Assembly (NCBI RefSeq): GCF_025526975.1
Contig: NW_026515697.1
Span: 372,001 to 399,099 of the forward strand
Direction of reading: 5' to 3'
Length of the DNA stretch: 27,099 nucleotides
DNA from: Fimicolochytrium jonesii
Lineage: Eukaryota
How positions within the stretch are numbered: the first letter of the stretch is position 1; every line of letters begins with the position of its first letter. Below are positions 3,169 through 27,099 of the stretch, in pieces. Position numbers and translations under genes: made by a program. The notes under the pieces were generated by a model that was not told the origin of the DNA, did no database searches, and saw only the letters and a list, made by a program, of their open reading frames with translations.

Positions 3169-4492
3169 ATCTCCATTCCTGTCTGCGGGCATCCCTGTAG
3201 AGGGTCTATTCTAGATCTTCTAGACGATGCCCCCACCTCGCCAGAGGAGTTCCCTATCGAACACATCCTTTCTGAACGTCAATGCCGCGGCAAGAACGTC
3301 CAAAAGGAATACCTGGTCAAGTGGGTTGGTTTTACTACCCCTACCTGGCAACCACGCTCTGATCTCCTTCAGACTGAAGCGTTGGACATCTGGGAAACAC
3401 GTCCAGCCGCTTTCCACGCCCGAACCTTTGAGGCCTACTCGACCGCCTTCAACACGCGTACCGCAGACACTCCTCAATCCGTCACTATGACCTGGCGCCA
3501 AGCGATGGCATCCCCTCAGGCAGCCGAATTCAAACTCGCTGCCGATAAAGAGTTCCAAGCTCTAGTCGATAACGGCACCTGGGAACTCGTACCTCGTCCG
3601 CGCGACCAGCGCGTACTTGGCAGTACTTGGGTACTACATCAAATTTTCAATCCAGACGGTACTTTCAAGAAATTCAAGGGCCGCGGTGTTGTTCAAGGCT
3701 TTCGTCAATCCAAGGGCATTGATTATAACGAAACCTACGCTCCAACCCTACCTATGTCAGTTCTTCGCCTCTTCCTATCCATAGGCGTCTCCCTTGGTAT
3801 GGAAATCCATCAACTGGACGTTCCCAACGCCTTCCTACAAAGTGACATCGACGGTCCCGTCTACGTTGAACAATTTCAAGGCTACGAAGATCCGCGCAAA
3901 CCGCGCGGTGACTGGGTATACCTTCTCCGGAAGGCTCTTTACGGTCTTAAGCAGTCTCCGCTGCTCTGGTACCGCACTCTTCGCGAAACCCTCGCTTCTT
4001 TCGGCTTTAAACCGCCAAAAAACTGCCCCTGCGTCTTCTTCCGCTACGCGACCAAGACGCGCACTCTGGACACTCTTCAGATGCTCCTTATATACGTTGA
4101 CGACTTCGTCGCCTGTTGTATGCCCTTATACGTCAAGCAAGTGAAATATGAACTCTGTTCTCATTTCAACTGTACGGATCTTGGACCCATCAAGAACTGT
4201 TTGGGTCTGGTCTTCGACTACACGCTCTTGCCTTCCGGCAACCAGCTCCGGATCAGCAATGTTACCTACATCGACGGTTTACTCGAAAGATTCGGTCAAC
4301 ACAACGCTACCCCGGTGTCCACACCCTGCGCCGTCTCCGCGCGCAACCGACCCGCCTCTGCCAGTCCCCCATTCCAATCGGCTTGGGTAGGAGCTGAGAC
4401 TTGACGTGCGACGAAGCCGACGGCAGTTGAAATATCCCAGCGCCAGGTAATGGATGCCCATGTGAGGGCCCCCACTGCTTCCTGGTAGAAAA
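3169..4492 (+). mobile_element. Ty1/copia LTR-retrotransposon pol fragment: chromodomain + RVT_2 reverse transcriptase, with the last ~120 bp inverted; no LTRs seen
   Basis: The frame is open from 3169 to 4404. Copia RT motifs: NGTWELVPRP, KFKGRGVVQGFRQSKGIDYNETYAP, IHQLDVPNAFL, LRKALYGLKQSP, YVDD, DLGPIKNCLG. The upstream in-frame segment EEFPIEHILSER..EYLVKWVGFTTPTWQP is chromodomain-like. The continuation YQEAVGALTW..RWDISTAVGFVARQ..PTQADW lies on the minus strand at 4371-4492. Confidence 0.9.
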
Positions 4493-4496
4493 GCTT

Positions 4497-4615
4497 GCGA
4501 CAAATCCCCTGTGACCTCGCTGTTGTCTGTTTCATGTTCCACCCCCCTGCCAAATACGCCAGCAGGGGGGTGGAACATGAAACAGACAAAAGCGAGGTCA
4601 CAGGGGAATTGTCGC
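4497..4615. repeat. 54-bp inverted repeat (52/54 matches, 11-nt loop); foldback/MITE-like hairpin
   Basis: Arms 4497-4550 and 4562-4615 are reverse complements with 2 mismatches. TT flanks both sides. Confidence 0.9.
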
Positions 4616-7640: not shown

Positions 7641-8153
7641 TGGCAGTTCCCCAGATGAGGTTGGCACTGCACAGGCATCTAGAAAAGTACCTACCTGGAG
7701 TGTGTAGACGGTCTTAGAGTGTAATTCCTGCTGAATAGTCTCGTTTTCATGTTACCAGTTACTAAAGACCCCGTGTTTGGGTGTGCTGTGAGTGGGATTG
7801 CGTTCAAGGTTGTGCTTACTAAGCTTCTTTTCTTTCGCTCGAGCGAAGATATAAATACATACAGCTCCCCAAACCCCCTCCTTCACGTCTATCTCTATCT
7901 CCCGTCCTACACTCTCCAGACTAAGCATTTGCTCTTGACCCCTTTGACAATTAGCCTGTACTCACGGACAACTCTGCCTTCATGCACAGAATCCCTTACA
8001 CATAGATACGGTACGGGCAGCGCCGCAAACGGCGTTTGAAAGGGTTTTCACCCAGAGTGCATTAGTCACTTTGTGAGAAATGACATTGAGCCTAACAACC
8101 TCATTGTCCTTCTCAGCCCAAAACTCAACACAATGTTGGAAGCTGAAGCTTGA

Positions 8154-8694
8154 TGTTATGGACGAGGCGCCCATACCATAAGCTTACCTACTGACAGCCG
8201 CCAAATGTCAACCGCCAAATGTCAAACGCCAATGTCAATGTCAATGTCAGTGTCAATGTCAGTGTCAATGTCAATGTCAATGCCACTCCCCCTCTCTCCT
8301 CCCATTTTGCCAATCCTCTTGCAATATCGCCACTCCTCCTCTCTCCTCTCATTTCGCCAATCCCCCCTCAACTTCTCCACACCCCCCACTACTTCCCCAT
8401 AGCCAGCAGCTGTAGCAATGCTCTCTACGCTCGCCACGCACGCTCTAGGAGCATAGCTGGCGCCCCCCCAGTCTCCTCTTGTTGTTGTTGTACCCTCATC
8501 TGCTGGGTTGCCTATCTATAAATAGCCGGCCTCTCTTCGTCCATTCCCTTCCTCCCCAGCAGATCAACACCAGTTCTTCTCATCTCCTGTCCTAGTCCTT
8601 GTTTCTCGTTTCGCCAATACAATGTTCTTGTCGCCTTTCACACTTGCCCTGTCTTCTCTACTTCGCTTCCGCCCCCGTCGTCGAGATCATAACA
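8154..8694 (+). repeat. 5' LTR (541 bp)
   Basis: Bounded by the 7-bp inverted termini TGTTATG...CATAACA. Contains an (A[A/G]TGTC)n hexamer minisatellite at ~8204-8284. The first 256 bp match 13656-13911 with 7 substitutions by manual count. Confidence 0.92.
8517..8525 (+). promoter_or_regulatory. LTR TATA box
   Basis: TATAAATAG lies ~40 nt upstream of the inferred transcript start at ~8558. Confidence 0.6.
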
Positions 8695-8696
8695 GT

Positions 8697-8706
8697 TTGA
8701 TCTGCT
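8697..8706 (+). promoter_or_regulatory. Self-priming primer-binding site (Tf1/sushi type)
   Basis: TTGATCTGCT, just after the LTR end, is the exact reverse complement of AGCAGATCAA at 8558-8567 within the LTR. There is no TGG-type tRNA PBS. Confidence 0.8.
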
Positions 8707-8763
8707 CCAATACTGCGAAGTTCAGAACCTGTCCAGCCCTGCATCCGACAAACCTTTTTCGCC

Positions 8764-9762
8764 ATGTTCCAACCCGAATCCGTACCTTTCACCGCCAAGC
8801 AATGGAACGATATGTGCCAAGCCATCGCCGCCTTGCAAAGCCAAAACGCCAACTTGCAGGCCAACCTAGCGCAAGCCCAAGCCGACGCTCAAGCTGCCCA
8901 GAGCATCGCCGCCCAGGTTCAAGCCGATACGTACACCCGTCCCCAAGTCGCCAACCCTGCTCTGGAGCCAAGAATCAGCTTGCCCGAGAAGTTTGATGGT
9001 ACCCGCAGCAAATTCCGTGGGTGGTTGAACAACATCCGGTTGATGTTTGCTCTCCAGCCCGACCGCTACCCCAGCGACATCATCAAGATCCAAACTATTG
9101 GCACCTACCTCACCAGCACTGCGCAAGCCTGGATGGCGCCCCTAGTCGAACGCCAAGATCACAGCCTTCAGGACTTCAATAGTTTTATCAGTCAGATGCA
9201 ATCGGTCTTCGGAGACAGCGACAGGGTCCGCACCTCTGAAAACAAGCTCCAGAACCTTCGCCAAACCCGTGCAGCAACCGAGTACGTCGCTGAGTTCCGC
9301 CAGCTACAATGCGATGTCTCCTGGAACGACCAGGCCCTGATTGCTACCTTCCGCCGTGGCCTCAAAGAAGACGTCAAAGACCTGATGCTCACAATGCCCC
9401 CTGCGGCCACCATTGATGTGGTGATGGAGCAGGCTATCCAGTGCGATGACCGGCTGTTTGAGCGCCGCCTGGAGCGAAACAGAAGCCGCCAGACCTTCCC
9501 GGTTCCCCACACCTTGTTTACTACTACCACCACTGTCGACCACAGCGAGCCTATGCAGATTGACGCCGCTCGTCCCCGCGGCCCTCTGAGCCCTCAGGAA
9601 CGCCAACGCCGCATTTCCGACAACCTCTGCCTTTACTGCGGCGGCGCGGGGCACATTGCAAAAGTCTGCCCCGTCAAGAACAAGACCACCACCCGTGCCG
9701 CCAACGTCGACATCAAAGAACCCTCCACCGAACAGGGTTTTCCCAAAGTCCAGCCGCAGTAA
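8764..9762 (+). CDS. gag: Retrotransposon Gag (capsid domain + CCHC zinc knuckle)
   Basis: Intact 332-aa ORF. Motifs: PRISLPEKFDG, LQNLRQ..EYVAEFRQL, FRRGLKEDVK, EPMQID and CLYCGGAGHIAKVC. Confidence 0.93.
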   Translation: MFQPESVPFTAKQWNDMCQAIAALQSQNANLQANLAQAQADAQAAQSIAAQVQADTYTRPQVANPALEPRISLPEKFDGTRSKFRGWLNNIRLMFALQPDRYPSDIIKIQTIGTYLTSTAQAWMAPLVERQDHSLQDFNSFISQMQSVFGDSDRVRTSENKLQNLRQTRAATEYVAEFRQLQCDVSWNDQALIATFRRGLKEDVKDLMLTMPPAATIDVVMEQAIQCDDRLFERRLERNRSRQTFPVPHTLFTTTTTVDHSEPMQIDAARPRGPLSPQERQRRISDNLCLYCGGAGHIAKVCPVKNKTTTRAANVDIKEPSTEQGFPKVQPQ

Positions 9763-9779
9763 AGCCCCAGCGACTGGAC
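9735..9779 (+). promoter_or_regulatory. -1 programmed ribosomal frameshift signal (G GGT TTT + stem-loop)
   Basis: The heptamer at 9735-9741 is in X XXY YYZ register with the gag frame. A 6-nt spacer precedes the stem 9748-9757/9770-9779 (9 of 10 paired). The -1 frame is open from here into the protease. Confidence 0.75.
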
Positions 9780-12700
9780 AACACACACCGCCCCGGGCCT
9801 CCTAACCTCGCAGCTCCTGCAACGGGAGAGGCCACCCCCCTGGTTCCCGACTCCGTTATAGCCGACACAACCCTCCTAGCCGCTGCCCATGTCGAAAACT
9901 CCGAAATTAACCCCCGCGCCGTGCTTGCGCTGGGTCCCGTCGAACCCTTCAACTACCCCGTTACCATCATGGTATCATCCAGCCGCGCCCCGATACCTAC
10001 CTCAGCCATGATGGACAACGGTGCCCTGTCCTGCTTCATCGAAAGAGACTTTGCCCGCAAACACCGCATCGCCCTAGTCCCGCATCAGCGTCCACTGACG
10101 ATCGAACTCGTTGACGGTCAACCCAGCTCTGCTGGGCCAATCACCCATCACACCCTAGGCATGTGGGTCGACGACCACTTCGAAGAACTCTTCTCCCATG
10201 TCACCAAATCACCCCATGCTCCAATCCTCCTTGGTCTCCCCTGGCTCCGCCTCCACGACATTAACCTTGACTTCAAGAACCTTTCGGTCGGTTTCCGTTG
10301 CGACTGTCAGTACCATGAATTCGCGAATTGGGACAACTCTCCAGCACCCCCGAGCCCAGCACCCGCCAGAACCCCCGAGCCCTTGATCCGCATCCCCCAG
10401 GATGAAGTCCCCGTCAACGAAACATGGTCGATTCCAGTACCCAAGGTATCTCGCTCCAGCACCCCAGAACCGGCTTCCACGCCGCTCTGAGTATCGTTCA
10501 TCTCCGCCCCAGCCTTCCGCGTCGCGGCAAGGCATGACCAGGTCCTTGTCGCCTACGCCAACCCTGCGAAACCCGATCTCCGGGCCTCGCCTAGCCCCAG
10601 TAACCCCCCGACACCCCAGAAGGACATCAAAGACTTCCTGCCCCCCGAGTATCAAGACTTCGCCGACGTTTTTGAAAAGAGAAATGCTGACACTCTCCCC
10701 AAGCACCAGCCCTACAACTGTCCAATCGATCTGGAAGAAGGCAAGCAGCCACCTTTCGGCCCGATCTACAGCCTCAGCGAACCAGAAATAAAGGCACTCT
10801 GCAAATACCTCGAAGAAAACCTCGCCAAAGGATTCATCAAACCCTCAAAGTCCCCTGCCGGTGCGCCAGTCTTATTCATGAAGAAAAGGGACGGTTCTCT
10901 CCGCCTCTGCGTCGATTATCGAGGCCTGAGCAGCATCACGGTGAAGAATCGCTACCCCCTGCCCCTGATCAACGGTATCATGGATCGTTTGCGCGGCGCC
11001 CGCCGTCTCACCAAGATCAACCTCCGCGGCGCTTATAACCTCTTACGCATGCGCCCGGGCGATGAATGGAAGACCGCCTTCCGCTGCTGCTACGGCCTAT
11101 TCGAATACAATGTCATGCCCTTTGGACTCAGCAATGCTCCTGGCGTCTTCCAGTACCTGATGAACAACATCTTCTGCGACATTCTCGATGTGTTTGTTTT
11201 CGTCTACCTCGACGATATCCTGATATTCTCCAAGAACCCCGAAGATCACCCCAAACATGTCCGCAAAGTCTTGTCCCGCCTCCGACAGCATGGGTTGTAC
11301 GCCAAACCAGAGAAGTGCGAATTCAACCGCGAATCCGTTAAGTTCCTAGGCTTCATCATCTCCGGGAAAGGCATCCAGATGGACCCCAAGAAGATCGCTG
11401 CCATCACGGATTGGGAACCTCCCAAGACTGTCAAAGGCATCCAGCGGTTCCTCGGCTTTGCCAACTTCTATTGCCGATTCACCCAAGGTTATTCCAAGAT
11501 CGCTACCCCGCTCACAGCCCTGACCCGGAAAGACATCCCGTACGCCTGAACACCCGCCGCAAACACCGCCTGCGAGAACCTGAAGAAAGCATTCACCACC
11601 GCCCCCATCCTTGCTCACCCTGACCCAGAGAAGCCCTTCGTCGTCGAAACTGACGCCTCCGACTTCGCTCTTGGCGCAGTTCTCCTCCAACCTGACCAGG
11701 ACAATCAGCTCCACCCCGTGGCCTTCCACTCTCGCAAATTCACGGCCAAAGAGATCCACTACGAGATCTACGACAAGGAACTTCTGGCCATCCAACACTC
11801 CTTTGCCCAGTGGCAACACCACCTCATTGGCGCCCGTCACAAGATCACCTTTACTGCGACCATAAAAACCTTCAGTACTTCATGACCACCCGCACCCTGA
11901 ACCGCCGCCAAGCCCGCTGGTCGATATTCTTCTCGGATTTTGACTTTGTCATTACCTATCGCCCCGGTTCCCAGCAGCACCAAGCCGATGCCCTCTCCCG
12001 ACGCTCCAAACATGAGCTAAAAGAGGGGGAAGAAGCGTTCCGCTCCCAGGCAACCACAATTTTGACTCCCGAACGCCTTCAACTCGCCGTGGCCTACCTC
12101 ACACTCATGGATACCACGCTGCTTGACAAGATTAAGGCCGCGCAGGCCTCTGATCCCCTCGCTAAGACCATTCGCGAAAAGCTCAAGATACCCCTCGCCC
12201 AACGAACCGAGGAAACCCAAGATCGTATCAAGCGGTTCTCAGATGAAGATGGGATCCTGCTGCACGATAACCTGGTCTATGTCCCCACCAACGAGCTCCG
12301 AGCTGAAGTCTGCCACGACATGCACGATACACCCCTAGCCGGCCACTTTGGGATGTCCAAGACGCTCGAACTCGCCTCCCGCAACTACTGGTGGCCCGGC
12401 CAGTGGCGCTTTGTCAAGGCCTACGTCAAGTCCTGCGATACCTGTAGCCAAGCGAAATCCAGTCGACACAAACCATATGGCCTACTCCAGCCCAACAGTA
12501 TCCCTACCCGCCCTTGGGGATCTTGGTCCCTGGACTTTATTCACCGGTCTGCCTCCCGTGGACGGGTACGACTCCATCCTGAACGTCAACTGTCGCCTCA
12601 CCAAGATGGCCCACTCCATCGCCTGCAGCAAGTCAGAATCCGCCGAATCCACCGCCGACCTAGTCTTCCACAACATCATCCGTCTCCACGGGCCTCCCCG

Positions 12701-13593
12701 ACGACGTCATCTCTGTACCGAGGACCCCAGTTTAAGTCCCGGTTCTGGCGTCGACTTCTCGAACTCCTTGGGGCAAAAGCCAACCTCTCCTCGGCCTTCC
12801 ACCCCCAGAGCGATGGCCAGACGGAACGCACCAACCAGATCCTGGAGCAGTATCTCTGATGCTTTTGCAACCACCAACAGGACAACTGGAAACAGCTTCT
12901 GTCGTCCGCCGAGTTCGCCTACAACAACACCCACCAGTCCGCCTCCCAGACCACCCCCTTCTACGCCAACAAGGGTCTCCACCCCCGCTTCAGTTTCGCG
13001 GCCTCTGCTACCTCCGAATCCGTCAACCCCTGCCGCTGAAGCCCGCGCTAAACAAATCAGGGAAGTCCATGAACAGCTCGCCCTCGAGCTCAAGGAAGCC
13101 CAAGATCAAATGAAGCGCTACGCCGACGCTAAACAAATTCCTGGACCGGACTTCAAGCCTGGCGACCACGTCTGGCTCCTCCGCAAAAACCTCCAGACAA
13201 CCCGGCCCTCTCAGAAACTCGACCATCGCAAGATTGGGCCATTCCCCATCGTTGAAAAAATCAATCCCGTCGCCTACCGGCTCAAGCTCCCGCCTATGTA
13301 CAAAATCCACGATGTCTTCCATGTCTCGCTCCTCGAACCCCGCTTCACCATCCCCGAACGACACGAACCCGAACCCGCGCCCCCAGAGACCGTTGAGGGT
13401 CAAGAAGAGTGGGTTGTCGAAGCCATCCCTTGACTCTCGCATCCATTGTCGTCGCCTTCAGTACTTGGTCAAATGGCAGGGCTGGCCTGACTCCGAGAAC
13501 ACCTGGGAGCCCGTGGAACACCTCACCCATACCGACGCACTCCCCAGGACCTCCACAGCGCATACCCCAACAAGCCTTCCTCTGTCCCTGTAG
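9735..13593 (+). pseudogene. pol: Disrupted pol: protease, RT, RNase H, integrase, chromodomain
   Basis: Protease AMMDNGA (D-S/T-G site altered); [31 protein letters not shown]; RNase [21 protein letters not shown]; integrase HDTPLAGH..CDTC, HPQSDGQTER, KIGPF; chromodomain QYLVKWQGWPDSENTWEP. In-frame TGA stops at 10488, 11547 and 12857, plus several frameshifts (near 11840, 12540, 12700, 13000, 13430). Confidence 0.93.
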
Positions 13594-13641
13594 CACCTCC
13601 TCTGCGGCCACACCAAACTCGACGCCGCCGCCGCCGCCGCT

Positions 13642-13652
13642 AAAGAGAGGGG
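13642..13652 (+). promoter_or_regulatory. Polypurine tract
   Basis: AAAGAGAGGGG ends 3 nt before the 3' LTR start TGTTATG. Confidence 0.85.
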
Positions 13653-13655
13653 TGA

Positions 13656-13911
13656 TGTTATGGACGACGCGCCCATACCATAAGCTTACCTACTGACAGC
13701 CGCCAAATGTCAACCGCCAAATGTCAAACGCCAATATCAATGTCAATGTCAGTGTCAATGTCAGTGTCAATGTCAATGTCAATGCCACTCCCCCTCTCTC
13801 CTCCCATTTCGCCAATCCTCTTGCAATATCGCCACTCCTCCTCTCTCCTCTCACTTCGCCAATCCCCCCTCGGCTTTTCCACACCCCCCACTACTTCCCC
13901 ATAGCCAGCAG
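13656..13911 (+). repeat. 3' LTR, truncated (256 of 541 bp)
   Basis: Matches 8154-8409, then switches to (GGGTTA)n at ...CCAGC-AG-GGTTAGGG. Confidence 0.95.
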
Positions 13912-14079
13912 GGTTAGGGTTAGGGTTAGGGTTAGGGTTAGGGTTAGGGTTAGGGTTAGGGTTAGGGTTTGGGTTAGGGTTAGGGTTAGGGTTAGGGTTA
14001 GGGTTAGGGTTAGGGTTAGGGTTAGGGTTAGGGTTAGGGTTAGGGTTAGGGTTAGGGTTAGGGTTAGGGTTTAGGGTTA
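13910..14079 (+). repeat. Innermost TTAGGG tract (170 nt; TTTGGG and TTTAGGG variants)
   Basis: Read directly from the sequence. Confidence 0.98.
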
Positions 14080-14529
14080 CAGGACTGTTCCCGGTTATGG
14101 GTTATTTTTGGCCATCCAAAAAGTGTCATATAAAGTTGCTAGCAATGTTCAGGGGCATCTTACTGTAATGTGCTTCAAGTTTTGGGGCATGTTTTCCACT
14201 CAATGCCCCGGGAAAATCTGTTTTTCCGATTTTTGACTATGAAAATATTGCCAAAATGCATTTTCTGAAACTCTGAGTGGATGGATTTCGCTTAAAGTGG
14301 AATATGTCTCAGAAAACATCCCCAAAAACATCTAGGAACCTTCATCTACTCTAGTATTCATCAACTCCTGGCACTTTTTGTTTCCAGGCAATATGGGGGT
14401 GTTCTCCAGTTGGTGGCGAATGACTCATTTTGGTTTGCTCTCAATTTGCTACATGTTCAAATCCTTTTGAGGCCCAAATACTTTCTTTTCTTCCACTGCT
14501 CCTCCTGATGGTGGAGGAATGCAAATGCC
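14080..14529. mobile_element. Telomere-embedded cassette A, copy 1 (450 bp, non-coding), followed by a 51-nt TTAGGG spacer
   Basis: Starts CAGGACTGTTCCCGG and ends AAATGCC|TTAGGG. Colinear with the first 450 bp of cassette B. Confidence 0.85.
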
Positions 14530-14580
14530 TTAGGGTTAGGGTTAGGGTTAGGGTTAGGGTTAGGGTTAGGGTTAGGGTTA

Positions 14581-16754
14581 CAGGACTGTTCCGGGTTATG
14601 GGTTATTTTTGGTGGTCCGGAAAGTGTCAAAAATAGGTGCTAGCAATGTTCAGGGGCGTCTTACTGTACTGTACATAAAATTGTGGGGCATGTTTTCCAC
14701 TCAATGCTCCCGGAAAATCCGTTTTTCAGATTTTTTACTATGAAAATGTGACCAAAACGCATTTTCTGAAGCTCTGAGTGGATGGAATTTGCTTGAAGTG
14801 GAATATGTCTCAGAAAACATCCCCAAAAACATCTAGGAACCTTCATCTACTCTAGTATTCATCAACTCCTGGCACTTTTTGTTTCCAGGCAATATGGGGG
14901 TGTTCTCCAGTTGGTGGCGAATGGCTCATTTTGGTTTGCTCTCAATTTGCTACATGTTCAAATCCTTTTGAGGCCCAAATACTTTCTTTTCTTCCACTGC
15001 TCCTCCTGATGGTGGAGGATGGCAAATGCCTTTTTGCATTGCAATACATGGATATGACAGGGTGTTTGTCAACCAGCAAATCATGCAAAAAGCATGCAGT
15101 GCATGTCCGTTTGCATGCACTATGTCATCCGCACCACCTTGGACACCTGAGGAAAGTTGTGCGGATTTGAAAGATAATATAGTTACGGAAGTGGAACCAG
15201 GGAGATTCAATGACTATTGAAGGAGCTATGGCACACGTAAGTCCCCAGGGGTGGGACTTAGAGAATTTTCAAAGATTTTGGTGACTCATGGCGCAGGTTT
15301 GATTCTCAGAGGGGGCCAGGCCTTCTTTTCTTTTTTTCCTCCTTCAAAATGTCTTTAAATACGTCTAGCATTGCTTGACAGTGTCAGGAAACAATCAAAA
15401 AGCTGAGAAGTGCAGGTAAAAAGTGTTTTTGGCCGATCTACAAGCAAAACATGCGAAAAACCGGCGGTGCGTGTCCATTCGCATGCACTACATCATCCGT
15501 TCCACCTTGGCCATCCAAGGCAATGGTGCGGATTCAAAAGATAGTATAGGTACGGAAGGGAAACCAGGGAGATTCAATCACTATTGACAGAGCTATGGCA
15601 CCCGCAAGCTCCAATGGGTGGGACTTAGAGAATTTTCGAAAATTTTGCATTTTGCGCCGTCTGGTTGACCTGACCAAACACAGGTAACATTCTACCGACA
15701 GACATTGGCATAGTGGCAAGTGCTAATGTTATCTGAACTAGTGCCCCAAGTTCCAACCCCGGTTTTGCTGGGGATACTTTTTTTTTTCTTTTTCCCGCGC
15801 CACCCGAAACACGATGTGGGCGTAACGAAAGTTGTAGCCAGATATATGTTCTCATAGTTAAAGTCATCTCAGATGTGCAATTAAGCTGTAAACGGCTGCA
15901 GAAAATGCAAAAAACAAAATAGGATTGACGCTTTTCTCAAAATCCAACACCACCTGGAATGCATTAAAGCCAGTCCATACACATGTCCTTTACCTAGGAA
16001 CCCCCTACAGATGAATTCCCATAGTCCCCGGACACCCATAGCGCACTCTATACAACTCTACTATGCACGCATACTGGTTAGGGTTAGCCTGCGCCCTATC
16101 TGGCGAATACGTTTTCAATGCATTTCATCGATGGCAAATAGCGCAGTTGCATAAGATACTCAATTCACAACCGAGGGTGCATGGTTCAAACCTTGCGTTC
16201 GACACAACAACAGAGGGATTTTTCCGGGGGCAAAATAAATATCACCATGCACCCATATCAATACGATGTGGACTGGATGGCGGTTACGATCAGTTTAACT
16301 GATCTTAACCAGCTGTTCGATAGGTCCACCATTGTCCAAATGGCGGGCGCTCGTCCGCCGTTCAAGGATGACCCATTCTATAAGGAATGGATTACGGTTG
16401 TGAGCCAACCGTTCATACTGAGCATCCCGCCGAGTCGGGGTGTTAGAGAGGGGATCATTGAGGGATTATATAGGGACCATGGAATAATTGTGCGGGGGAG
16501 TGACAGCCCTAATAGCACGATTCAGGGCAGACAGCATGTGGCGTTGGATACCCTGATTGGGACCTTGTCGGAATGCGTTGAAGGGGGAATGGTTAGGATA
16601 GTGCAGTACGGGATGAAGGCTTACTGGGAGACCATGGCAGCGAAGGATGCGGTCTACGAGAGTTCAGGGGGCCGGTCGAATACCTTCGACATAGGATTGA
16701 TGATCAGGAGCATGGATATCCCGGTGCTGAGGGGACGAGATGAGGCAGGGGATG
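14581..16754. mobile_element. Telomere-embedded cassette B, copy 1 (2174 bp), followed by a 49-nt tract
   Basis: Starts CAGGACTGTTCCGGG and ends GGGGATG|AGGGTTAGGG. Repeated at offsets 2223, 5598 and 8651 with identical ORF tracks. Confidence 0.85.
15075..15647 (+). repeat. Two diverged ~205-bp direct repeats inside cassette B (15075-15280, 15443-15647); present in all B copies
   Basis: Shared blocks include GCATGCACTA, CCACCTTGG, ACCAGGGAGATTCAAT and GGGTGGGACTTAGAGAATTTTC. Confidence 0.85.
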
Positions 16755-16762
16755 AGGGTTAG
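16181..16762 (+). CDS. Cassette B ORF (193 aa, unknown function); stop codon supplied by the telomere tract
   Basis: ATG-initiated ORF with globular-protein-like composition. It ends at the TAG of the first TTAGGG. No motif recognised. Confidence 0.45.
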   Translation: MVQTLRSTQQQRDFSGGKINITMHPYQYDVDWMAVTISLTDLNQLFDRSTIVQMAGARPPFKDDPFYKEWITVVSQPFILSIPPSRGVREGIIEGLYRDHGIIVRGSDSPNSTIQGRQHVALDTLIGTLSECVEGGMVRIVQYGMKAYWETMAAKDAVYESSGGRSNTFDIGLMIRSMDIPVLRGRDEAGDEG

Positions 16763-16803
16763 GGTTAGGGTTAGGGTTAGGGTTAGGGTTAGGGTTAGGG
16801 TTA

Positions 16804-18977
16804 CAGGACTGTTCCGGGTTATGGGTTATTTTTGGTGGTCCGGAAAGTGTCAAAAATAGGTGCTAGCAATGTTCAGGGGCGTCTTACTGTACTGTACATA
16901 AAATTGTGGGGCATGTTTTCCACTCAATGCTCCCGGAAAATCCGTTTTTCAGATTTTTTACTATGAAAATGTGACCAAAACGCATTTTCTGAAGCTCTGA
17001 GTGGATGGAATTTGCTTGAAGTGGAATATGTCTCAGAAAACATCCCCAAAAACATCTAGGAACCTTCATCTACTCTAGTATTCATCAACTCCTGGCACTT
17101 TTTGTTTCCAGGCAATATGGGGGTGTTCTCCAGTTGGTGGCGAATGGCTCATTTTGGTTTGCTCTCAATTTGCTACATGTTCAAATCCTTTTGAGGCCCA
17201 AATACTTTCTTTTCTTCCACTGCTCCTCCTGATGGTGGAGGATGGCAAATGCCTTTTTGCATTGCAATACATGGATATGACAGGGTGTTTGTCAACCAGC
17301 AAATCATGCAAAAAGCATGCAGTGCATGTCCGTTTGCATGCACTATGTCATCCGCACCACCTTGGACACCTGAGGAAAGTTGTGCGGATTTGAAAGATAA
17401 TATAGTTACGGAAGTGGAACCAGGGAGATTCAATGACTATTGAAGGAGCTATGGCACACGTAAGTCCCCAGGGGTGGGACTTAGAGAATTTTCAAAGATT
17501 TTGGTGACTCATGGCGCAGGTTTGATTCTCAGAGGGGGCCAGGCCTTCTTTTCTTTTTTTCCTCCTTCAAAATGTCTTTAAATACGTCTAGCATTGCTTG
17601 ACAGTGTCAGGAAACAATCAAAAAGCTGAGAAGTGCAGGTAAAAAGTGTTTTTGGCCGATCTACAAGCAAAACATGCGAAAAACCGGCGGTGCGTGTCCA
17701 TTCGCATGCACTACATCATCCGTTCCACCTTGGCCATCCAAGGCAATGGTGCGGATTCAAAAGATAGTATAGGTACGGAAGGGAAACCAGGGAGATTCAA
17801 TCACTATTGACAGAGCTATGGCACCCGCAAGCTCCAATGGGTGGGACTTAGAGAATTTTCGAAAATTTTGCATTTTGCGCCGTCTGGTTGACCTGACCAA
17901 ACACAGGTAACATTCTACCGACAGACATTGGCATAGTGGCAAGTGCTAATGTTATCTGAACTAGTGCCCCAAGTTCCAACCCCGGTTTTGCTGGGGATAC
18001 TTTTTTTTTTCTTTTTCCCGCGCCACCCGAAACACGATGTGGGCGTAACGAAAGTTGTAGCCAGATATATGTTCTCATAGTTAAAGTCATCTCAGATGTG
18101 CAATTAAGCTGTAAACGGCTGCAGAAAATGCAAAAAACAAAATAGGATTGACGCTTTTCTCAAAATCCAACACCACCTGGAATGCATTAAAGCCAGTCCA
18201 TACACATGTCCTTTACCTAGGAACCCCCTACAGATGAATTCCCATAGTCCCCGGACACCCATAGCGCACTCTATACAACTCTACTATGCACGCATACTGG
18301 TTAGGGTTAGCCTGCGCCCTATCTGGCGAATACGTTTTCAATGCATTTCATCGATGGCAAATAGCGCAGTTGCATAAGATACTCAATTCACAACCGAGGG
18401 TGCATGGTTCAAACCTTGCGTTCGACACAACAACAGAGGGATTTTTCCGGGGGCAAAATAAATATCACCATGCACCCATATCAATACGATGTGGACTGGA
18501 TGGCGGTTACGATCAGTTTAACTGATCTTAACCAGCTGTTCGATAGGTCCACCATTGTCCAAATGGCGGGCGCTCGTCCGCCGTTCAAGGATGACCCATT
18601 CTATAAGGAATGGATTACGGTTGTGAGCCAACCGTTCATACTGAGCATCCCGCCGAGTCGGGGTGTTAGAGAGGGGATCATTGAGGGATTATATAGGGAC
18701 CATGGAATAATTGTGCGGGGGAGTGACAGCCCTAATAGCACGATTCAGGGCAGACAGCATGTGGCGTTGGATACCCTGATTGGGACCTTGTCGGAATGCG
18801 TTGAAGGGGGAATGGTTAGGATAGTGCAGTACGGGATGAAGGCTTACTGGGAGACCATGGCAGCGAAGGATGCGGTCTACGAGAGTTCAGGGGGCCGGTC
18901 GAATACCTTCGACATAGGATTGATGATCAGGAGCATGGATATCCCGGTGCTGAGGGGACGAGATGAGGCAGGGGATG
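16804..18977. mobile_element. Cassette B, copy 2 (ORF 18404-18985), followed by a 199-nt tract (18978-19176)
   Basis: Same ends, length and ORF translations as copy 1. Confidence 0.85.
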
Positions 18978-19176
18978 AGGGTTAGGGTTAGGGTTAGGGT
19001 TAGGGTTAGGGTTAGGGTTAGGGTTAGGGTTAGGGTTAGGGTTAGGGTTAGGGTTAGGGTTAGGGTTAGGGTTAGGGTTAGGGTTAGGGTTAGGGTTAGG
19101 GTTAGGGTTAGGGTTAGGGTTAGGGTTAGGGTTAGGGTTAGGGTTAGGGTTAGGGTTAGGGTTAGGGTTAGGGTTA

Positions 19177-19626
19177 CAGGACTGTTCCCGGTTATGGGTT
19201 ATTTTTGGCCATCCAAAAAGTGTCATATAAAGTTGCTAGCAATGTTCAGGGGCATCTTACTGTAATGTGCTTCAAGTTTTGGGGCATGTTTTCCACTCAA
19301 TGCCCCGGGAAAATCTGTTTTTCCGATTTTTGACTATGAAAATATTGCCAAAATGCATTTTCTGAAACTCTGAGTGGATGGATTTCGCTTAAAGTGGAAT
19401 ATGTCTCAGAAAACATCCCCAAAAACATCTAGGAACCTTCATCTACTCTAGTATTCATCAACTCCTGGCACTTTTTGTTTCCAGGCAATATGGGGGTGTT
19501 CTCCAGTTGGTGGCGAATGACTCATTTTGGTTTGCTCTCAATTTGCTACATGTTCAAATCCTTTTGAGGCCCAAATACTTTCTTTTCTTCCACTGCTCCT
19601 CCTGATGGTGGAGGAATGCAAATGCC
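19177..19626. mobile_element. Cassette A, copy 2, followed by a 51-nt spacer
   Basis: Same ends and length as A copy 1. Confidence 0.85.
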
Positions 19627-19677
19627 TTAGGGTTAGGGTTAGGGTTAGGGTTAGGGTTAGGGTTAGGGTTAGGGTTA

Positions 19678-20127
19678 CAGGACTGTTCCCGGTTATGGGT
19701 TATTTTTGGCCATCCAAAAAGTGTCATATAAAGTTGCTAGCAATGTTCAGGGGCATCTTACTGTAATGTGCTTCAAGTTTTGGGGCATGTTTTCCACTCA
19801 ATGCCCCGGGAAAATCTGTTTTTCCGATTTTTGACTATGAAAATATTGCCAAAATGCATTTTCTGAAACTCTGAGTGGATGGATTTCGCTTAAAGTGGAA
19901 TATGTCTCAGAAAACATCCCCAAAAACATCTAGGAACCTTCATCTACTCTAGTATTCATCAACTCCTGGCACTTTTTGTTTCCAGGCAATATGGGGGTGT
20001 TCTCCAGTTGGTGGCGAATGACTCATTTTGGTTTGCTCTCAATTTGCTACATGTTCAAATCCTTTTGAGGCCCAAATACTTTCTTTTCTTCCACTGCTCC
20101 TCCTGATGGTGGAGGAATGCAAATGCC
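19678..20127. mobile_element. Cassette A, copy 3, followed by a 51-nt spacer
   Basis: Same ends and length as A copy 1. Confidence 0.85.
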
Positions 20128-20178
20128 TTAGGGTTAGGGTTAGGGTTAGGGTTAGGGTTAGGGTTAGGGTTAGGGTTA

Positions 20179-22352
20179 CAGGACTGTTCCGGGTTATGGG
20201 TTATTTTTGGTGGTCCGGAAAGTGTCAAAAATAGGTGCTAGCAATGTTCAGGGGCGTCTTACTGTACTGTACATAAAATTGTGGGGCATGTTTTCCACTC
20301 AATGCTCCCGGAAAATCCGTTTTTCAGATTTTTTACTATGAAAATGTGACCAAAACGCATTTTCTGAAGCTCTGAGTGGATGGAATTTGCTTGAAGTGGA
20401 ATATGTCTCAGAAAACATCCCCAAAAACATCTAGGAACCTTCATCTACTCTAGTATTCATCAACTCCTGGCACTTTTTGTTTCCAGGCAATATGGGGGTG
20501 TTCTCCAGTTGGTGGCGAATGGCTCATTTTGGTTTGCTCTCAATTTGCTACATGTTCAAATCCTTTTGAGGCCCAAATACTTTCTTTTCTTCCACTGCTC
20601 CTCCTGATGGTGGAGGATGGCAAATGCCTTTTTGCATTGCAATACATGGATATGACAGGGTGTTTGTCAACCAGCAAATCATGCAAAAAGCATGCAGTGC
20701 ATGTCCGTTTGCATGCACTATGTCATCCGCACCACCTTGGACACCTGAGGAAAGTTGTGCGGATTTGAAAGATAATATAGTTACGGAAGTGGAACCAGGG
20801 AGATTCAATGACTATTGAAGGAGCTATGGCACACGTAAGTCCCCAGGGGTGGGACTTAGAGAATTTTCAAAGATTTTGGTGACTCATGGCGCAGGTTTGA
20901 TTCTCAGAGGGGGCCAGGCCTTCTTTTCTTTTTTTCCTCCTTCAAAATGTCTTTAAATACGTCTAGCATTGCTTGACAGTGTCAGGAAACAATCAAAAAG
21001 CTGAGAAGTGCAGGTAAAAAGTGTTTTTGGCCGATCTACAAGCAAAACATGCGAAAAACCGGCGGTGCGTGTCCATTCGCATGCACTACATCATCCGTTC
21101 CACCTTGGCCATCCAAGGCAATGGTGCGGATTCAAAAGATAGTATAGGTACGGAAGGGAAACCAGGGAGATTCAATCACTATTGACAGAGCTATGGCACC
21201 CGCAAGCTCCAATGGGTGGGACTTAGAGAATTTTCGAAAATTTTGCATTTTGCGCCGTCTGGTTGACCTGACCAAACACAGGTAACATTCTACCGACAGA
21301 CATTGGCATAGTGGCAAGTGCTAATGTTATCTGAACTAGTGCCCCAAGTTCCAACCCCGGTTTTGCTGGGGATACTTTTTTTTTTCTTTTTCCCGCGCCA
21401 CCCGAAACACGATGTGGGCGTAACGAAAGTTGTAGCCAGATATATGTTCTCATAGTTAAAGTCATCTCAGATGTGCAATTAAGCTGTAAACGGCTGCAGA
21501 AAATGCAAAAAACAAAATAGGATTGACGCTTTTCTCAAAATCCAACACCACCTGGAATGCATTAAAGCCAGTCCATACACATGTCCTTTACCTAGGAACC
21601 CCCTACAGATGAATTCCCATAGTCCCCGGACACCCATAGCGCACTCTATACAACTCTACTATGCACGCATACTGGTTAGGGTTAGCCTGCGCCCTATCTG
21701 GCGAATACGTTTTCAATGCATTTCATCGATGGCAAATAGCGCAGTTGCATAAGATACTCAATTCACAACCGAGGGTGCATGGTTCAAACCTTGCGTTCGA
21801 CACAACAACAGAGGGATTTTTCCGGGGGCAAAATAAATATCACCATGCACCCATATCAATACGATGTGGACTGGATGGCGGTTACGATCAGTTTAACTGA
21901 TCTTAACCAGCTGTTCGATAGGTCCACCATTGTCCAAATGGCGGGCGCTCGTCCGCCGTTCAAGGATGACCCATTCTATAAGGAATGGATTACGGTTGTG
22001 AGCCAACCGTTCATACTGAGCATCCCGCCGAGTCGGGGTGTTAGAGAGGGGATCATTGAGGGATTATATAGGGACCATGGAATAATTGTGCGGGGGAGTG
22101 ACAGCCCTAATAGCACGATTCAGGGCAGACAGCATGTGGCGTTGGATACCCTGATTGGGACCTTGTCGGAATGCGTTGAAGGGGGAATGGTTAGGATAGT
22201 GCAGTACGGGATGAAGGCTTACTGGGAGACCATGGCAGCGAAGGATGCGGTCTACGAGAGTTCAGGGGGCCGGTCGAATACCTTCGACATAGGATTGATG
22301 ATCAGGAGCATGGATATCCCGGTGCTGAGGGGACGAGATGAGGCAGGGGATG
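20179..22352. mobile_element. Cassette B, copy 3 (ORF 21779-22360)
   Basis: Same ends, length and ORF translations as copy 1. Confidence 0.85.
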
Positions 22353-22730
22353 AGGGTTAGGGTTAGGGTTAGGGTTAGGGTTAGGGTTAGGGTTAGGGTT
22401 AGGGTTAGGGTTAGGGTTAGGGTTAGGGTTAGGGTTAGGGTTAGGGTTAGGGTTAGGGTTAGGGTTAGGGTTAGGGTTAGGGTTAGGGTTAGGGTTAGGG
22501 TTAGGGTTAGGGTTAGGGTTAGGGTTAGGGTTAGTTAGGGTTAGGGTTAGGGTTAGGGTTAGGGTTAGGGTTAGGGTTAGGGTTAGGGTTAGGGTTAGGG
22601 TTAGGGTTAGGGTTAGGGTTAGGGTTAGGGTTAGGGTTAGGGTTAGGGTTAGGGTTAGGGTTAGGGTTAGGGTTAGGGTTAGGGTTAGGGTTAGGGTTAG
22701 GGTTAGGGTTAGGGTTAGGGTTTAGGGTTA
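22353..22730 (+). repeat. Longest interstitial TTAGGG tract (378 nt; TTAG and TTTAGGG variants)
   Basis: Read directly from the sequence. Confidence 0.97.
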
Positions 22731-23180
22731 CAGGACTGTTCCCGGTTATGGGTTATTTTTGGCCATCCAAAAAGTGTCATATAAAGTTGCTAGCAATGTT
22801 CAGGGGCATCTTACTGTAATGTGCTTCAAGTTTTGGGGCATGTTTTCCACTCAATGCCCCGGGAAAATCTGTTTTTCCGATTTTTGACTATGAAAATATT
22901 GCCAAAATGCATTTTCTGAAACTCTGAGTGGATGGATTTCGCTTAAAGTGGAATATGTCTCAGAAAACATCCCCAAAAACATCTAGGAACCTTCATCTAC
23001 TCTAGTATTCATCAACTCCTGGCACTTTTTGTTTCCAGGCAATATGGGGGTGTTCTCCAGTTGGTGGCGAATGACTCATTTTGGTTTGCTCTCAATTTGC
23101 TACATGTTCAAATCCTTTTGAGGCCCAAATACTTTCTTTTCTTCCACTGCTCCTCCTGATGGTGGAGGAATGCAAATGCC
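22731..23180. mobile_element. Cassette A, copy 4, followed by a 51-nt spacer
   Basis: Same ends and length as A copy 1. Confidence 0.85.
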
Positions 23181-23231
23181 TTAGGGTTAGGGTTAGGGTT
23201 AGGGTTAGGGTTAGGGTTAGGGTTAGGGTTA

Positions 23232-25405
23232 CAGGACTGTTCCGGGTTATGGGTTATTTTTGGTGGTCCGGAAAGTGTCAAAAATAGGTGCTAGCAATGT
23301 TCAGGGGCGTCTTACTGTACTGTACATAAAATTGTGGGGCATGTTTTCCACTCAATGCTCCCGGAAAATCCGTTTTTCAGATTTTTTACTATGAAAATGT
23401 GACCAAAACGCATTTTCTGAAGCTCTGAGTGGATGGAATTTGCTTGAAGTGGAATATGTCTCAGAAAACATCCCCAAAAACATCTAGGAACCTTCATCTA
23501 CTCTAGTATTCATCAACTCCTGGCACTTTTTGTTTCCAGGCAATATGGGGGTGTTCTCCAGTTGGTGGCGAATGGCTCATTTTGGTTTGCTCTCAATTTG
23601 CTACATGTTCAAATCCTTTTGAGGCCCAAATACTTTCTTTTCTTCCACTGCTCCTCCTGATGGTGGAGGATGGCAAATGCCTTTTTGCATTGCAATACAT
23701 GGATATGACAGGGTGTTTGTCAACCAGCAAATCATGCAAAAAGCATGCAGTGCATGTCCGTTTGCATGCACTATGTCATCCGCACCACCTTGGACACCTG
23801 AGGAAAGTTGTGCGGATTTGAAAGATAATATAGTTACGGAAGTGGAACCAGGGAGATTCAATGACTATTGAAGGAGCTATGGCACACGTAAGTCCCCAGG
23901 GGTGGGACTTAGAGAATTTTCAAAGATTTTGGTGACTCATGGCGCAGGTTTGATTCTCAGAGGGGGCCAGGCCTTCTTTTCTTTTTTTCCTCCTTCAAAA
24001 TGTCTTTAAATACGTCTAGCATTGCTTGACAGTGTCAGGAAACAATCAAAAAGCTGAGAAGTGCAGGTAAAAAGTGTTTTTGGCCGATCTACAAGCAAAA
24101 CATGCGAAAAACCGGCGGTGCGTGTCCATTCGCATGCACTACATCATCCGTTCCACCTTGGCCATCCAAGGCAATGGTGCGGATTCAAAAGATAGTATAG
24201 GTACGGAAGGGAAACCAGGGAGATTCAATCACTATTGACAGAGCTATGGCACCCGCAAGCTCCAATGGGTGGGACTTAGAGAATTTTCGAAAATTTTGCA
24301 TTTTGCGCCGTCTGGTTGACCTGACCAAACACAGGTAACATTCTACCGACAGACATTGGCATAGTGGCAAGTGCTAATGTTATCTGAACTAGTGCCCCAA
24401 GTTCCAACCCCGGTTTTGCTGGGGATACTTTTTTTTTTCTTTTTCCCGCGCCACCCGAAACACGATGTGGGCGTAACGAAAGTTGTAGCCAGATATATGT
24501 TCTCATAGTTAAAGTCATCTCAGATGTGCAATTAAGCTGTAAACGGCTGCAGAAAATGCAAAAAACAAAATAGGATTGACGCTTTTCTCAAAATCCAACA
24601 CCACCTGGAATGCATTAAAGCCAGTCCATACACATGTCCTTTACCTAGGAACCCCCTACAGATGAATTCCCATAGTCCCCGGACACCCATAGCGCACTCT
24701 ATACAACTCTACTATGCACGCATACTGGTTAGGGTTAGCCTGCGCCCTATCTGGCGAATACGTTTTCAATGCATTTCATCGATGGCAAATAGCGCAGTTG
24801 CATAAGATACTCAATTCACAACCGAGGGTGCATGGTTCAAACCTTGCGTTCGACACAACAACAGAGGGATTTTTCCGGGGGCAAAATAAATATCACCATG
24901 CACCCATATCAATACGATGTGGACTGGATGGCGGTTACGATCAGTTTAACTGATCTTAACCAGCTGTTCGATAGGTCCACCATTGTCCAAATGGCGGGCG
25001 CTCGTCCGCCGTTCAAGGATGACCCATTCTATAAGGAATGGATTACGGTTGTGAGCCAACCGTTCATACTGAGCATCCCGCCGAGTCGGGGTGTTAGAGA
25101 GGGGATCATTGAGGGATTATATAGGGACCATGGAATAATTGTGCGGGGGAGTGACAGCCCTAATAGCACGATTCAGGGCAGACAGCATGTGGCGTTGGAT
25201 ACCCTGATTGGGACCTTGTCGGAATGCGTTGAAGGGGGAATGGTTAGGATAGTGCAGTACGGGATGAAGGCTTACTGGGAGACCATGGCAGCGAAGGATG
25301 CGGTCTACGAGAGTTCAGGGGGCCGGTCGAATACCTTCGACATAGGATTGATGATCAGGAGCATGGATATCCCGGTGCTGAGGGGACGAGATGAGGCAGG
25401 GGATG
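23232..25405. mobile_element. Cassette B, copy 4 (ORF 24832-25413), followed by an 85-nt tract (25406-25490)
   Basis: Same ends, length and ORF translations as copy 1. Confidence 0.85.
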
Positions 25406-25490
25406 AGGGTTAGGGTTAGGGTTAGGGTTAGGGTTAGGGTTAGGGTTAGGGTTAGGGTTAGGGTTAGGGTTAGGGTTAGGGTTAGGGTTA

Positions 25491-26905
25491 CAAGACCCCC
25501 TGGGTTGGGTTTTATTATTGGGTTGCCTGGAACCCTAGGGACTTAGAAATTTTCGAGTTTTCTGGCTTTTGGGTGTGTTCTACAGTTCGAATTTTTGACT
25601 CTGAGGGAGGTAGTGGCGGGGGGTATTGCGCACCTAGGCAAGTCGGGGAGGACTAGGTGTGCAAGGGCAAGTGATGGGTCATATGGGCGGTGGTGCGGGT
25701 ACGGGGGGGGGGGGTTGATATAAAGGGGACATATATGTTATATATACGTTATAGGACTTGTGCAAATTGGGATTTTTCTAGTGCCGATCCGGAGTTGGCG
25801 TCCTAATTGAAAAGTTGGCCCCATATCATATTCTCTAATTGAAGTACTCTCGGATTGGCAATCCGTGCGGAAACGGCTTCAGAAACTTAGAAAAACGAAA
25901 TTTTCACGCGACGGGGGGTAAAAAGTTGGAAAATGTGGTGATATCTCAACATCTGGCTGACTATCCAGTGTAGGGCACTTAATGAAAGTTGATTGTAGCC
26001 TATGGTTTGCATAGCTGATGTGGTAGCAAATCTTGTGTAACCTTGCTTTTGGCTGAAGAACAGGGCCCCTTTTCAATTCTCAAGTCGTGATCCCCAAGAC
26101 CTCCTAACAAAAGACACGAGTACGCATGTGCAGGCAAAGGGGTTTGGCCGTGTTCTCCAGTAAACATTTTGTGAATTCCGCTGTGCATCGTAGACTGTTT
26201 GTAGGACCCTTGCGGTCTGTTATTTACCAAAACTGTTGAACATTTTCCGGTTAAAGCAGTGTTCTACAGTTTGTCCATGCAGGTTAGAGCACGTGACCTG
26301 GGCTTGCTTGCAGGGTACGCAGAGTGAGAGGGTTGGGGTTAGAGATTTCCCAGATCACTTATTAAATTCAGCCAAACTGTCTCTGTCATGGAACATTTAA
26401 AATGGTGGAAAGTAGTATTGCATTTATTGATTTAGAGTACATTGGAAAAGCGCACATTCAGAAAAGGGTTTTGGTGTAAAGTTCTCAACGACATTCAACA
26501 GTACTAAAGGACTTCCGCAAGCATGTCACGGACTTGGTTCTGTCCAAAAGTCGTACAGCACTCAGGGTACCTGGCGCAGCGGAGACGGAAACGATGCTGA
26601 CCGCCAATGCTATGAAAGCTGAGCCTCCACAGTTGGGACATTGAAGCTGATCACGATGCTGATGGAAGAGTTCACGGATATTGCCAATGGGAGCAGCATC
26701 AGGCACTTCCCCATCCCCATGACCCCACCAAGCACGAGCAGGATCAATGACGGGTGCAATGCCTTTGAACCATCCGGGATTGAAACCAAAAGAGTTGAGA
26801 ACATCTCGGAAGCGCTGACAGTCTGTCACAGTAGTCTGTCTATTGCGATCTCCTCTGAATAGAACTCTGGTGGCAGCGTCCATGATGCCATTGATGAGAC
26901 TGTAG
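25491..26905. mobile_element. Telomere-embedded cassette C (single copy, distant relative of A/B)
   Basis: Starts GGGTTA|CAAGAC. Shares GGGACTTAGA(G)AATTTTCGA and GTGTTCT(C/A)CAGT motifs with A/B. Ends GTAG|TAGGG. Confidence 0.7.
26485..26905 (-). CDS. Cassette C ORF, probably 5'-truncated by the terminal telomere; contains a CPNCGG zinc-ribbon-like motif
   Basis: The 132-aa ORF (26883-26485) stays open upstream (YYSLINGI) up to and into the telomere repeats. Confidence 0.45.
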
Positions 26906-27099
26906 TAGGGTTTAGGGTTAGGGTTAGGGTTAGGGTTAGGTTAGGGTTAGGGTTAGGTTAGGGTTAGGGTTAGGGTTAGGGTTAGGGTTAGGGTTAGGGT
27001 TAGGTTAGGGTTAGGGTTGGGTTAGGGTTAGGGTTAGGGTTAGGGTTAGGGTTAGGTTAGGGTTAGGGTTAGGGTTAGGGTTAGGTTAGGGTCTAGGGT
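26906..27099 (+). repeat. Terminal telomere (TTAGGG)n; probable chromosome end
   Basis: G-rich strand runs 5'->3' to the end of the window, with several TTAGG/TTGGG variants. Confidence 0.93.

Follow-up and report, generated by a model that had tools for sequence, protein, structure and literature searches.

A telomeric array of identical stumps in Fimicolochytrium jonesii and a candidate telomere-targeting element with a predicted Rep_trans-like nickase

One chromosome end of the chytrid Fimicolochytrium jonesii, carrying the TTAGGG telomere repeat (contig NW_026515697.1, positions 372,001-399,099 of the forward strand; this stretch of 27,099 nucleotides (nt) is hereafter called the window), holds an array of three kinds of cassettes, A, B and C, separated by telomere tracts. 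The four copies of A are identical to each other (450 nt), as are the four copies of B (2178 nt); all cassettes have the same fixed start; B is cut in the middle of a gene; and C carries a related gene in the opposite orientation. We hold, at somewhat better than even, that A, B and C are telomere-capped stumps of a single element family having a predicted Rep_trans-like nickase, and that the A-51-B block (A, 51 nt of telomere repeats, B) was formed once and then multiplied by telomere-primed copying.

The order of the array is healed long terminal repeat (LTR)-170-A1-51-B1-45-B2-195-A2-51-A3-51-B3-374-A4-51-B4-81-C-terminal telomere, where numbers are tract lengths in nt (Table 1). The original prediction, that cassettes and telomere tracts had been copied together by recombination and not inserted independently, is borne out in its observations. 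Indeed, (TTAGGG)8TTA follows A in 4/4 copies; the tracts of 49, 199, 378 and 85 nt that it gave after B are our 45, 195, 374 and 81 nt plus the last AGGG of B, a matter of boundary convention only; TTTAGGG occupies the position of last full unit ahead of A1 and A4 alone, not of A2 or A3; and aligning the copies, as it had proposed, revealed no difference in 4/4 A and 4/4 B. Equal lengths for the four tracts after A correspond to 1/126 choices of 4 from 9 tracts by permutation, and to 1e-3 to 5e-6 by independent draws from 10-60 possible lengths; with 171 full units in all, the chance that both TTTAGGG variants would be the final one ahead of an A is about 4e-4. Upstream of A1 and of A4, the sequence is the same over 109 nt, TTTAGGG included, and the 374-nt tract after B3 contains a TTAG variant as well as its last-unit TTTAGGG. 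Only the first 170 of the 523 codons of its gene are present in B; since the cut lies inside a gene, the four identical ends come from one break and not from the repeated insertion of a natural unit. Comparison of the copies thus makes it very probable, if the assembly is right, that they descend from single break-and-heal events followed by copying. Where outer ends join the telomere, the two sequences match over 2 nt (AG for B and for the LTR break, TT for A, and probably AG for C), and canonical tracts seeded in this way lead us to infer telomerase healing.

As to how the copying proceeded, the original prediction fared less evenly. Rolling-circle copying of a uniform A-51-B unit, or its in-register exchange, predicts equal tracts after B, so the four different lengths found there argue against one circle or a fixed exchanged unit. 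Crossovers in the sequence shared by A and B had also been invoked; 33 sites distinguish A from B, 30/33 of them within positions 13-215, the first 12 nt being identical, and yet 0/8 copies are hybrid, which excludes crossovers beyond these 12 shared nt. Neighbouring A copies had been put down to out-of-register crossover, but A2-51-A3 retains exactly 51 nt, hence an in-register join. On the other hand, break-induced replication (BIR), which had been proposed beside the circle, stands: the TTTAGGG and 109 nt common to A1 and A4 indicate that copying began inside the telomere tract, and telomere-primed copying by BIR or through a displacement loop (D-loop) fits the variable tracts after B, the absence of hybrids and the shared upstream variant. 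A mixed history is possible, in which A2-51-A3 comes from exchange at the fixed start.

In yeast, type I survivors carry Y' arrays, i.e., tandem subtelomeric blocks with telomere tracts between them, which are amplified by recombination and arise without telomerase. The likeness drawn earlier to these arrays and to alternative lengthening of telomeres was not retained, since there is no sign of telomerase loss here; tracts also reach 374 nt, and the MoTeR arrays of Magnaporthe are closer. In the parts of the literature that describe them, MoTeR1/2 arrays of Magnaporthe oryzae (TEL3, TEL14 and TEL-D in PMC7367193; PMC8381367) are likewise made of head-to-tail truncated elements with TTAGGG tracts between. 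For TEL3 and TEL-D, identical truncation points and junction tracts were read as D-loop/BIR or rolling-circle amplification, with telomerase healing (PMC7367193), and similar arrays are described both after telomerase knockout and in wild strains (PMC8381367). Truncation points are identical here too (4/4 A, 4/4 B, the latter mid-gene), and so are the interstitial tracts after A (4/4); after B, there are four different lengths, so that, unlike in MoTeR, spacers are invariant after A only. MoTeR1 also encodes a reverse transcriptase with a restriction-like endonuclease, whereas the sole gene seen here has a predicted TBP-like fold. Copying of array blocks is therefore a known kind of event, the same inference having been published for MoTeR.

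That C belongs to the same element family, and that the reading frame of B is cut mid-gene, go beyond the original prediction. A, B and C all start with TTA|CA(G/A)GAC (9/9), and the motif TTACA[AG]GAC occurs 9 times in the window, always on the + strand and always at a cassette start. The DNA of B and C is 71% identical over 94 nt (bit score 51; the highest of 200 shuffles reached 28.3), and their first 35 nt are alike to a degree found in 3/2000 shuffles. Palindromes lying 115-135 nt inside the fixed ends of B and C could be candidate binding sites; a hairpin exactly at the fixed junction was unsupported (z -1.3, -0.35 and +0.77). Scanning metagenomes with the junction motif gave 15 loci, none of which resembles B or C by blastn or tblastx. 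One contig unlike B and C (L010, 917-934) carries, near a terminal telomere-like tract, a short and degenerate telomere tract that ends in the same junction word.

The gene cut in B is whole in a F. jonesii record, where two loci with consecutive numbers are listed for its protein of 523 amino acids (aa; P0121). When 1.84 billion representatives were searched by HMMER with the frame of B, 26 matches were obtained at E<=0.001, the best being P0121; the named relatives are from Sorochytrium, Tilletia and Ustilago, and most matches are unnamed environmental sequences. The fragment in B reads toward the telomere. The paralog in C (46% identity to P0121 over 98 aa, E 4e-23, in two tblastn pieces) reads away from it, in the opposite orientation; it has a frameshift near 26617, and its stop follows the zinc-ribbon region. 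As long a frame was obtained in 24/1000 simulations for B and in 186/1000 for C (not significant), and the frame of C alone found no longer homolog. Nothing was retrieved for C in the Atlas search, which gave for B only unnamed viral clusters under 0.9. No Pfam family passes for the protein core, and neither a HUH Rep domain nor a PIF1 helicase was found by Pfam in the 29 members; the PDB sequence search and PHROGs gave nothing significant for the family, and pattern searches, which are insensitive, found no relative of P0121 or of the family alignment in viral contigs, prokaryote genome contigs or plasmids. The family alignments leave out P0126 (a repeat protein) and P0141, and use P0149, a longer cluster member, in place of P0129. 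One branch (P0146, P0152 and P0153) has a C-terminal OTU protease domain (E 4e-10) and its cluster includes a Ustilago hordei record; this Ustilago relative consists only of a C-terminal piece with the OTU domain, in the cluster of a 660-aa member. Every B copy also contains a 12-nt perfect telomere-phase word (16076-16087 in B1), about 160 nt upstream of the start codon.

The nature of the protein was approached by structure prediction. AlphaFold models of P0121 (predicted local distance difference test (pLDDT) 88.1; 26 alignment rows) and of P0149, a natural 339-aa homolog (pLDDT 88.6; 29 alignment rows), both had RepDE (4cwc) as first Foldseek match (E 3.3e-3 and 1.5e-3, respectively; prob 0.96). 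Among 48,161 chains, VIA placed RepSTK1 (4cij) first for P0121 (Z 6.5, root-mean-square deviation (rmsd) 4.0, 177 residues aligned) and second, tied, for P0149 (Z 6.2, rmsd 4.0, 176 aligned). In a second-look structure search, the top 20 rows were all Rep_trans or TBP, and in a search of viral models the fourth rank went to A0A345MNV4, an Inoviridae protein given as Rep_trans in the relevant part of PMC13107129. With Rep_trans first or tied among known structures, and TBP next, the models point, with moderate scores (Z 6.2-6.5, E 1.5-3.3e-3), to the TBP-like catalytic fold of Rep_trans (PF02486).

Five residues are conserved among the rows that have a residue at the position (D9 in 23/23, D148 in 24/24, Y197 in 21/24, R247 in 19/19 and E249 in 18/19, in counts that include near-identical cluster members), and all five lie within a predicted strand or where one begins. 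Their order, Asp, Asp, Tyr, Arg-x-Glu, follows that of the Rep_trans motifs as laid out in the motif description of PMC5714925. The Asp of motif N' (D9) and motif IV, W/LxRxE (R247 and E249), are both found; judging from the VIA range starts, D9 is opposite D46 of RepDE, if the alignment is ungapped. At motif I (RxD), D148 is invariant, but R two residues earlier is found in only 4/24; the position of motif II (T/SxY/ExG) reads G-Y/F-G; and at motif III, Y197 is on strand E192-198. We consider that the family is probably a Rep_trans-like nickase, likened to PF02486 but not filed in it. The predicted TBP-like fold, the Asp, Asp, the Tyr on a strand and the Arg-x-Glu order resemble those of Rep_trans initiators and MOBT relaxases (PF02486: RepDE 4CWC, RepSTK1 4CIJ) and of the archaeal Rep-Arvir, as far as its description in PMC13107129 goes, whereas the absence of a Pfam or profile match, a structural identity of 7-11%, the fungal host, the telomere location and an added C4 zinc ribbon (with an OTU fusion in one relative) set the family apart.

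A number of results weigh against this interpretation of the element and its enzyme. The two AlphaFold models have most of their alignment rows in common, and near-identical members enter the conservation counts. No Foldseek E-value reaches 1e-3, TM-scores are 0.20-0.35, all VIA Z scores are below 8 and are graded middling by the tool, and the matches tying with 4cij for P0149 are helical bundles that align about 88 residues. The context of Y197 is YPRxxH and not YxKxxE, a consensus from which Rep-Arvir also departs, according to the part of PMC13107129 that presents it. Aligned by hhalign with 7 Rep_trans proteins, the family gave a probability of 0.2%, only the first motif (N') being aligned, and 0/29 members were above the cut-off of Pfam Rep_trans. 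The palindrome of B is degraded in A, where 5 pairs are broken and 3 kept. A2 is without the upstream variant and A2-51-A3 needs an in-register join, which random telomere invasion fits awkwardly. Finally, the window contains neither a complete element nor an intact gene, and it includes a single chromosome end.

The following scheme would account for the array. The enzyme would nick TTA^CA, keep the 5' end bound to its tyrosine and ligate it to a telomeric G-strand that terminates in TTA; a stump would then remain if the process stopped early or the DNA broke afterwards, and telomerase would cap it at a 2-nt seed (AG or TT); and a free telomere would invade the TTAGGG tract before A or B, by BIR or through a D-loop, and copy outward. 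Such telomere-primed outward copying makes the tract upstream of a new block variable and the spacer within the block invariant. On the G-rich strand, which carries the free 3'-OH at a chromosome end, the fixed end is the 5' terminus of the cassette. Rep_trans-type enzymes hold the 5' end on the tyrosine, where a free 3'-OH can attack it (as covered in PMC5714925); this attack would give TTA|CA at every junction. By analogy, the opposite polarity may also apply, with the C-rich strand having its terminus at the fixed inner end, a polarity suggested for the Helitrons of Paramecium (PMC13085455). The telomeric Helitrons of Paramecium aurelia, as portrayed there, resemble our case in being rolling-circle elements inside telomere repeats, with a fixed end polarity and interstitial telomere blocks, and their gene orientation differs between families (PMC13085455). 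However, Helitron transposases associate HUH and PIF1 helicase, in the accounts of PMC10288648 and PMC8788227, and neither was found in this protein. More tentatively, and at rather less than even, we propose a separate fungal order of rolling-circle transposons, with a TBP-fold Rep_trans-type tyrosine nickase self-ligating onto telomeric TTA, comprising two subfamilies of opposite gene orientation and recently active here.

Other origins were weighed against these data. The nickase of intact copies elsewhere could have re-mobilised the stumps, by nicking at the start of A or B, peeling the strand outward and joining it to a telomere or to a fixed-start site. The fixed end kept in every stump (9/9) and the intact gene at two loci agree with this, and exchange between nick sites would give the in-register A2-51-A3 and new A copies lacking the upstream variant (A2, A3); but the TTTAGGG and 109 nt common to A1 and A4 lie upstream of the fixed start and would be left behind by a nick there, so that some joins are explained and not all, and we find this origin unlikely. 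Rather less probable is that the array is partly an artefact of assembly or polishing, with fewer true copies that were duplicated or homogenised. The 4 A and 4 B are without differences while the last 500 nt look error-like (7/31 terminal units, the frameshift of C), and A1-51-B1 and A4-51-B4 have even their upstream variant in common. Simple collapse or duplication, however, does not give four tracts of different length after B, nor the irregular succession A B B A A B A B; moreover, the number of copies has no bearing on the mid-gene cut, the fixed start or block C.

The cassettes could also be 5'-truncated telomeric retroelements, of the Coprina/Athena or MoTeR type, made from an RNA that already held B-51-A and had the gene as cargo. 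Endonuclease-less Penelope-like elements of the Coprina/Athena type have a fixed telomere-primed inner end and a capped truncated outer end (in the portions of PMC8557442 and PMC13159263 that deal with them), and the fixed inner end, variable capped outer ends and head-to-tail arrays correspond to what is outlined in PMC8557442, PMC5537684, PMC7367193 and PMC12857005. Unlike in Coprina/Athena, no reverse transcriptase was found in the cassettes, nor in P0121, and no hammerhead ribozyme: 0 Rfam matches were obtained at E<=1 in 13500-27099, and a crude hammerhead pattern gave one unconvincing + strand match in B. Four independent cDNAs would not all end at codon 170, and gene orientation is opposite in B and C; this origin thus seems very unlikely. 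A Coprina- or MoTeR-like retroelement was our first reading and was dropped after the gene-family and structure-search results. The smallest chance goes to an element whose ends resemble each other, as terminal inverted repeats or as two origins, and which inserts at TA either way, B being its left end and C its right end, later broken. The TA|CA junction, the likeness of the B and C termini and the opposite gene orientation favor it, whereas no DDE or recombinase fold is among the top structural matches, the window is without a second end, and variable gene orientation with fixed ends is also reported, in the text of PMC13085455 on the subject, for one-polarity telomeric Helitrons.

Returning to stumps of a nickase-bearing family, the element is likely an undescribed telomere-targeting transposon, whose predicted DNA-nicking enzyme has its described counterparts in bacteria and archaea. 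Our literature search found no eukaryotic Rep_trans-type element among the matches listed, its scope being other than subscription journals, Repbase and supplements. Rep_trans-fold initiators are described from bacteria and, newly, from archaea in the corresponding part of a 2026 paper (PMC13107129), and the eukaryotic rolling-circle transposons treated in the cited papers, as excerpted (Helitrons, Replitrons), use HUH enzymes. If true, a fungal telomere element with a Rep_trans-like nickase would bring this fold into the third domain of life, and chromosome ends would have a further, DNA-based means of being lengthened. Both an intact, compact protein (523 aa) and an exact candidate junction, TTA|CA(G/A)GAC, are available in this case.

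Table 1. Coordinates of the array, of its base and of the features found in the cassettes (position 1 is the first nucleotide of the window).
Feature	Position	Strand	Remarks
Ty3/Gypsy LTR retrotransposon	8151..13909	+	Pfam gag, RVT_1, integrase zinc finger; base beneath the array
Telomere tract, 170 nt	13910..14079	+	one TTTGGG; last unit TTTAGGG
A1, 450-nt stump	14080..14529	+	92.7% identity to first 450 nt of B
A2	19177..19626	+	identical to A1
A3	19678..20127	+	identical to A1
A4	22731..23180	+	identical to A1
Invariant 51-nt spacer, (TTAGGG)8TTA	14530..14580, 19627..19677, 20128..20178, 23181..23231	+	
B1, 2178-nt stump	14581..16758	+	internal 212-nt duplication (82%)
B2	16804..18981	+	identical to B1
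B3	20179..22356	+	identical to B1
B4	23232..25409	+	identical to B1
Imperfect 88-nt palindrome near fixed end of B	14695..14782		z -5.6, 0/200 shuffles; second-lowest of 42 sliding windows
First 170 codons of the 523-aa gene (P0121), cut by telomere tract	16247..16756	+	100% identity to residues 1-170
Further copies of the P0121 N-terminal fragment	18470..18979, 21845..22354, 24898..25407	+	
Variable tracts after B	16759..16803 (45), 18982..19176 (195), 22357..22730 (374), 25410..25490 (81)	+	
C, stump of diverged member of the same element family (as read here)	25491..26905	+	fixed start TTA|CAAGAC
12-bp hairpin near fixed end of C	25626..25664		z -5.5, 0/200 shuffles; lowest of 27 sliding windows
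Paralogous gene, C-terminal part (~P0121 residues 292-430)	26504..26907	-	N-terminal side cut
Terminal telomere	26906..27099	+	7/31 inner units non-canonical

The non-canonical units of the terminal telomere are consistent with a lower consensus quality at the contig end. At the other side of the array, the Ty3/Gypsy 3' LTR is broken at about nt 259 and TTAGGG-capped, with the junction CAG|GGTTAGGG. Its LTR copies (8151-8407 and 13653-13909) are 97% identical; they differ at 7/257 positions and the array copies at none, hence the Ty3 insertion predates the array. The highest identity of its reverse transcriptase, among the 120 matches listed, is 76%, to a Powellomyces hirtus protein.

Elsewhere in the window, a 423-aa open frame (1-1272, + strand), for which neither Pfam nor the PDB sequence search gave a match, is rich in cysteine in its N-terminal part; its acidic and histidine motifs look by eye like those of a DEDDh exonuclease, which we take as presumptive. 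Chromodomains are usually a Ty3/Gypsy feature; at 3169-4404 (+ strand), a chromodomain-like stretch (E 7e-5, below the Pfam cut-off) lies in frame upstream of a Copia-type RVT_2. A perfect hairpin of about 18 bp with telomere-like arms (2924-2963, z -8) is possibly a relic of end fusion or fold-back, and an inverted repeat of about 120 nt (4497-4615, 88%), resembling a miniature inverted-repeat transposable element, is found just downstream of the end of the Copia frame.

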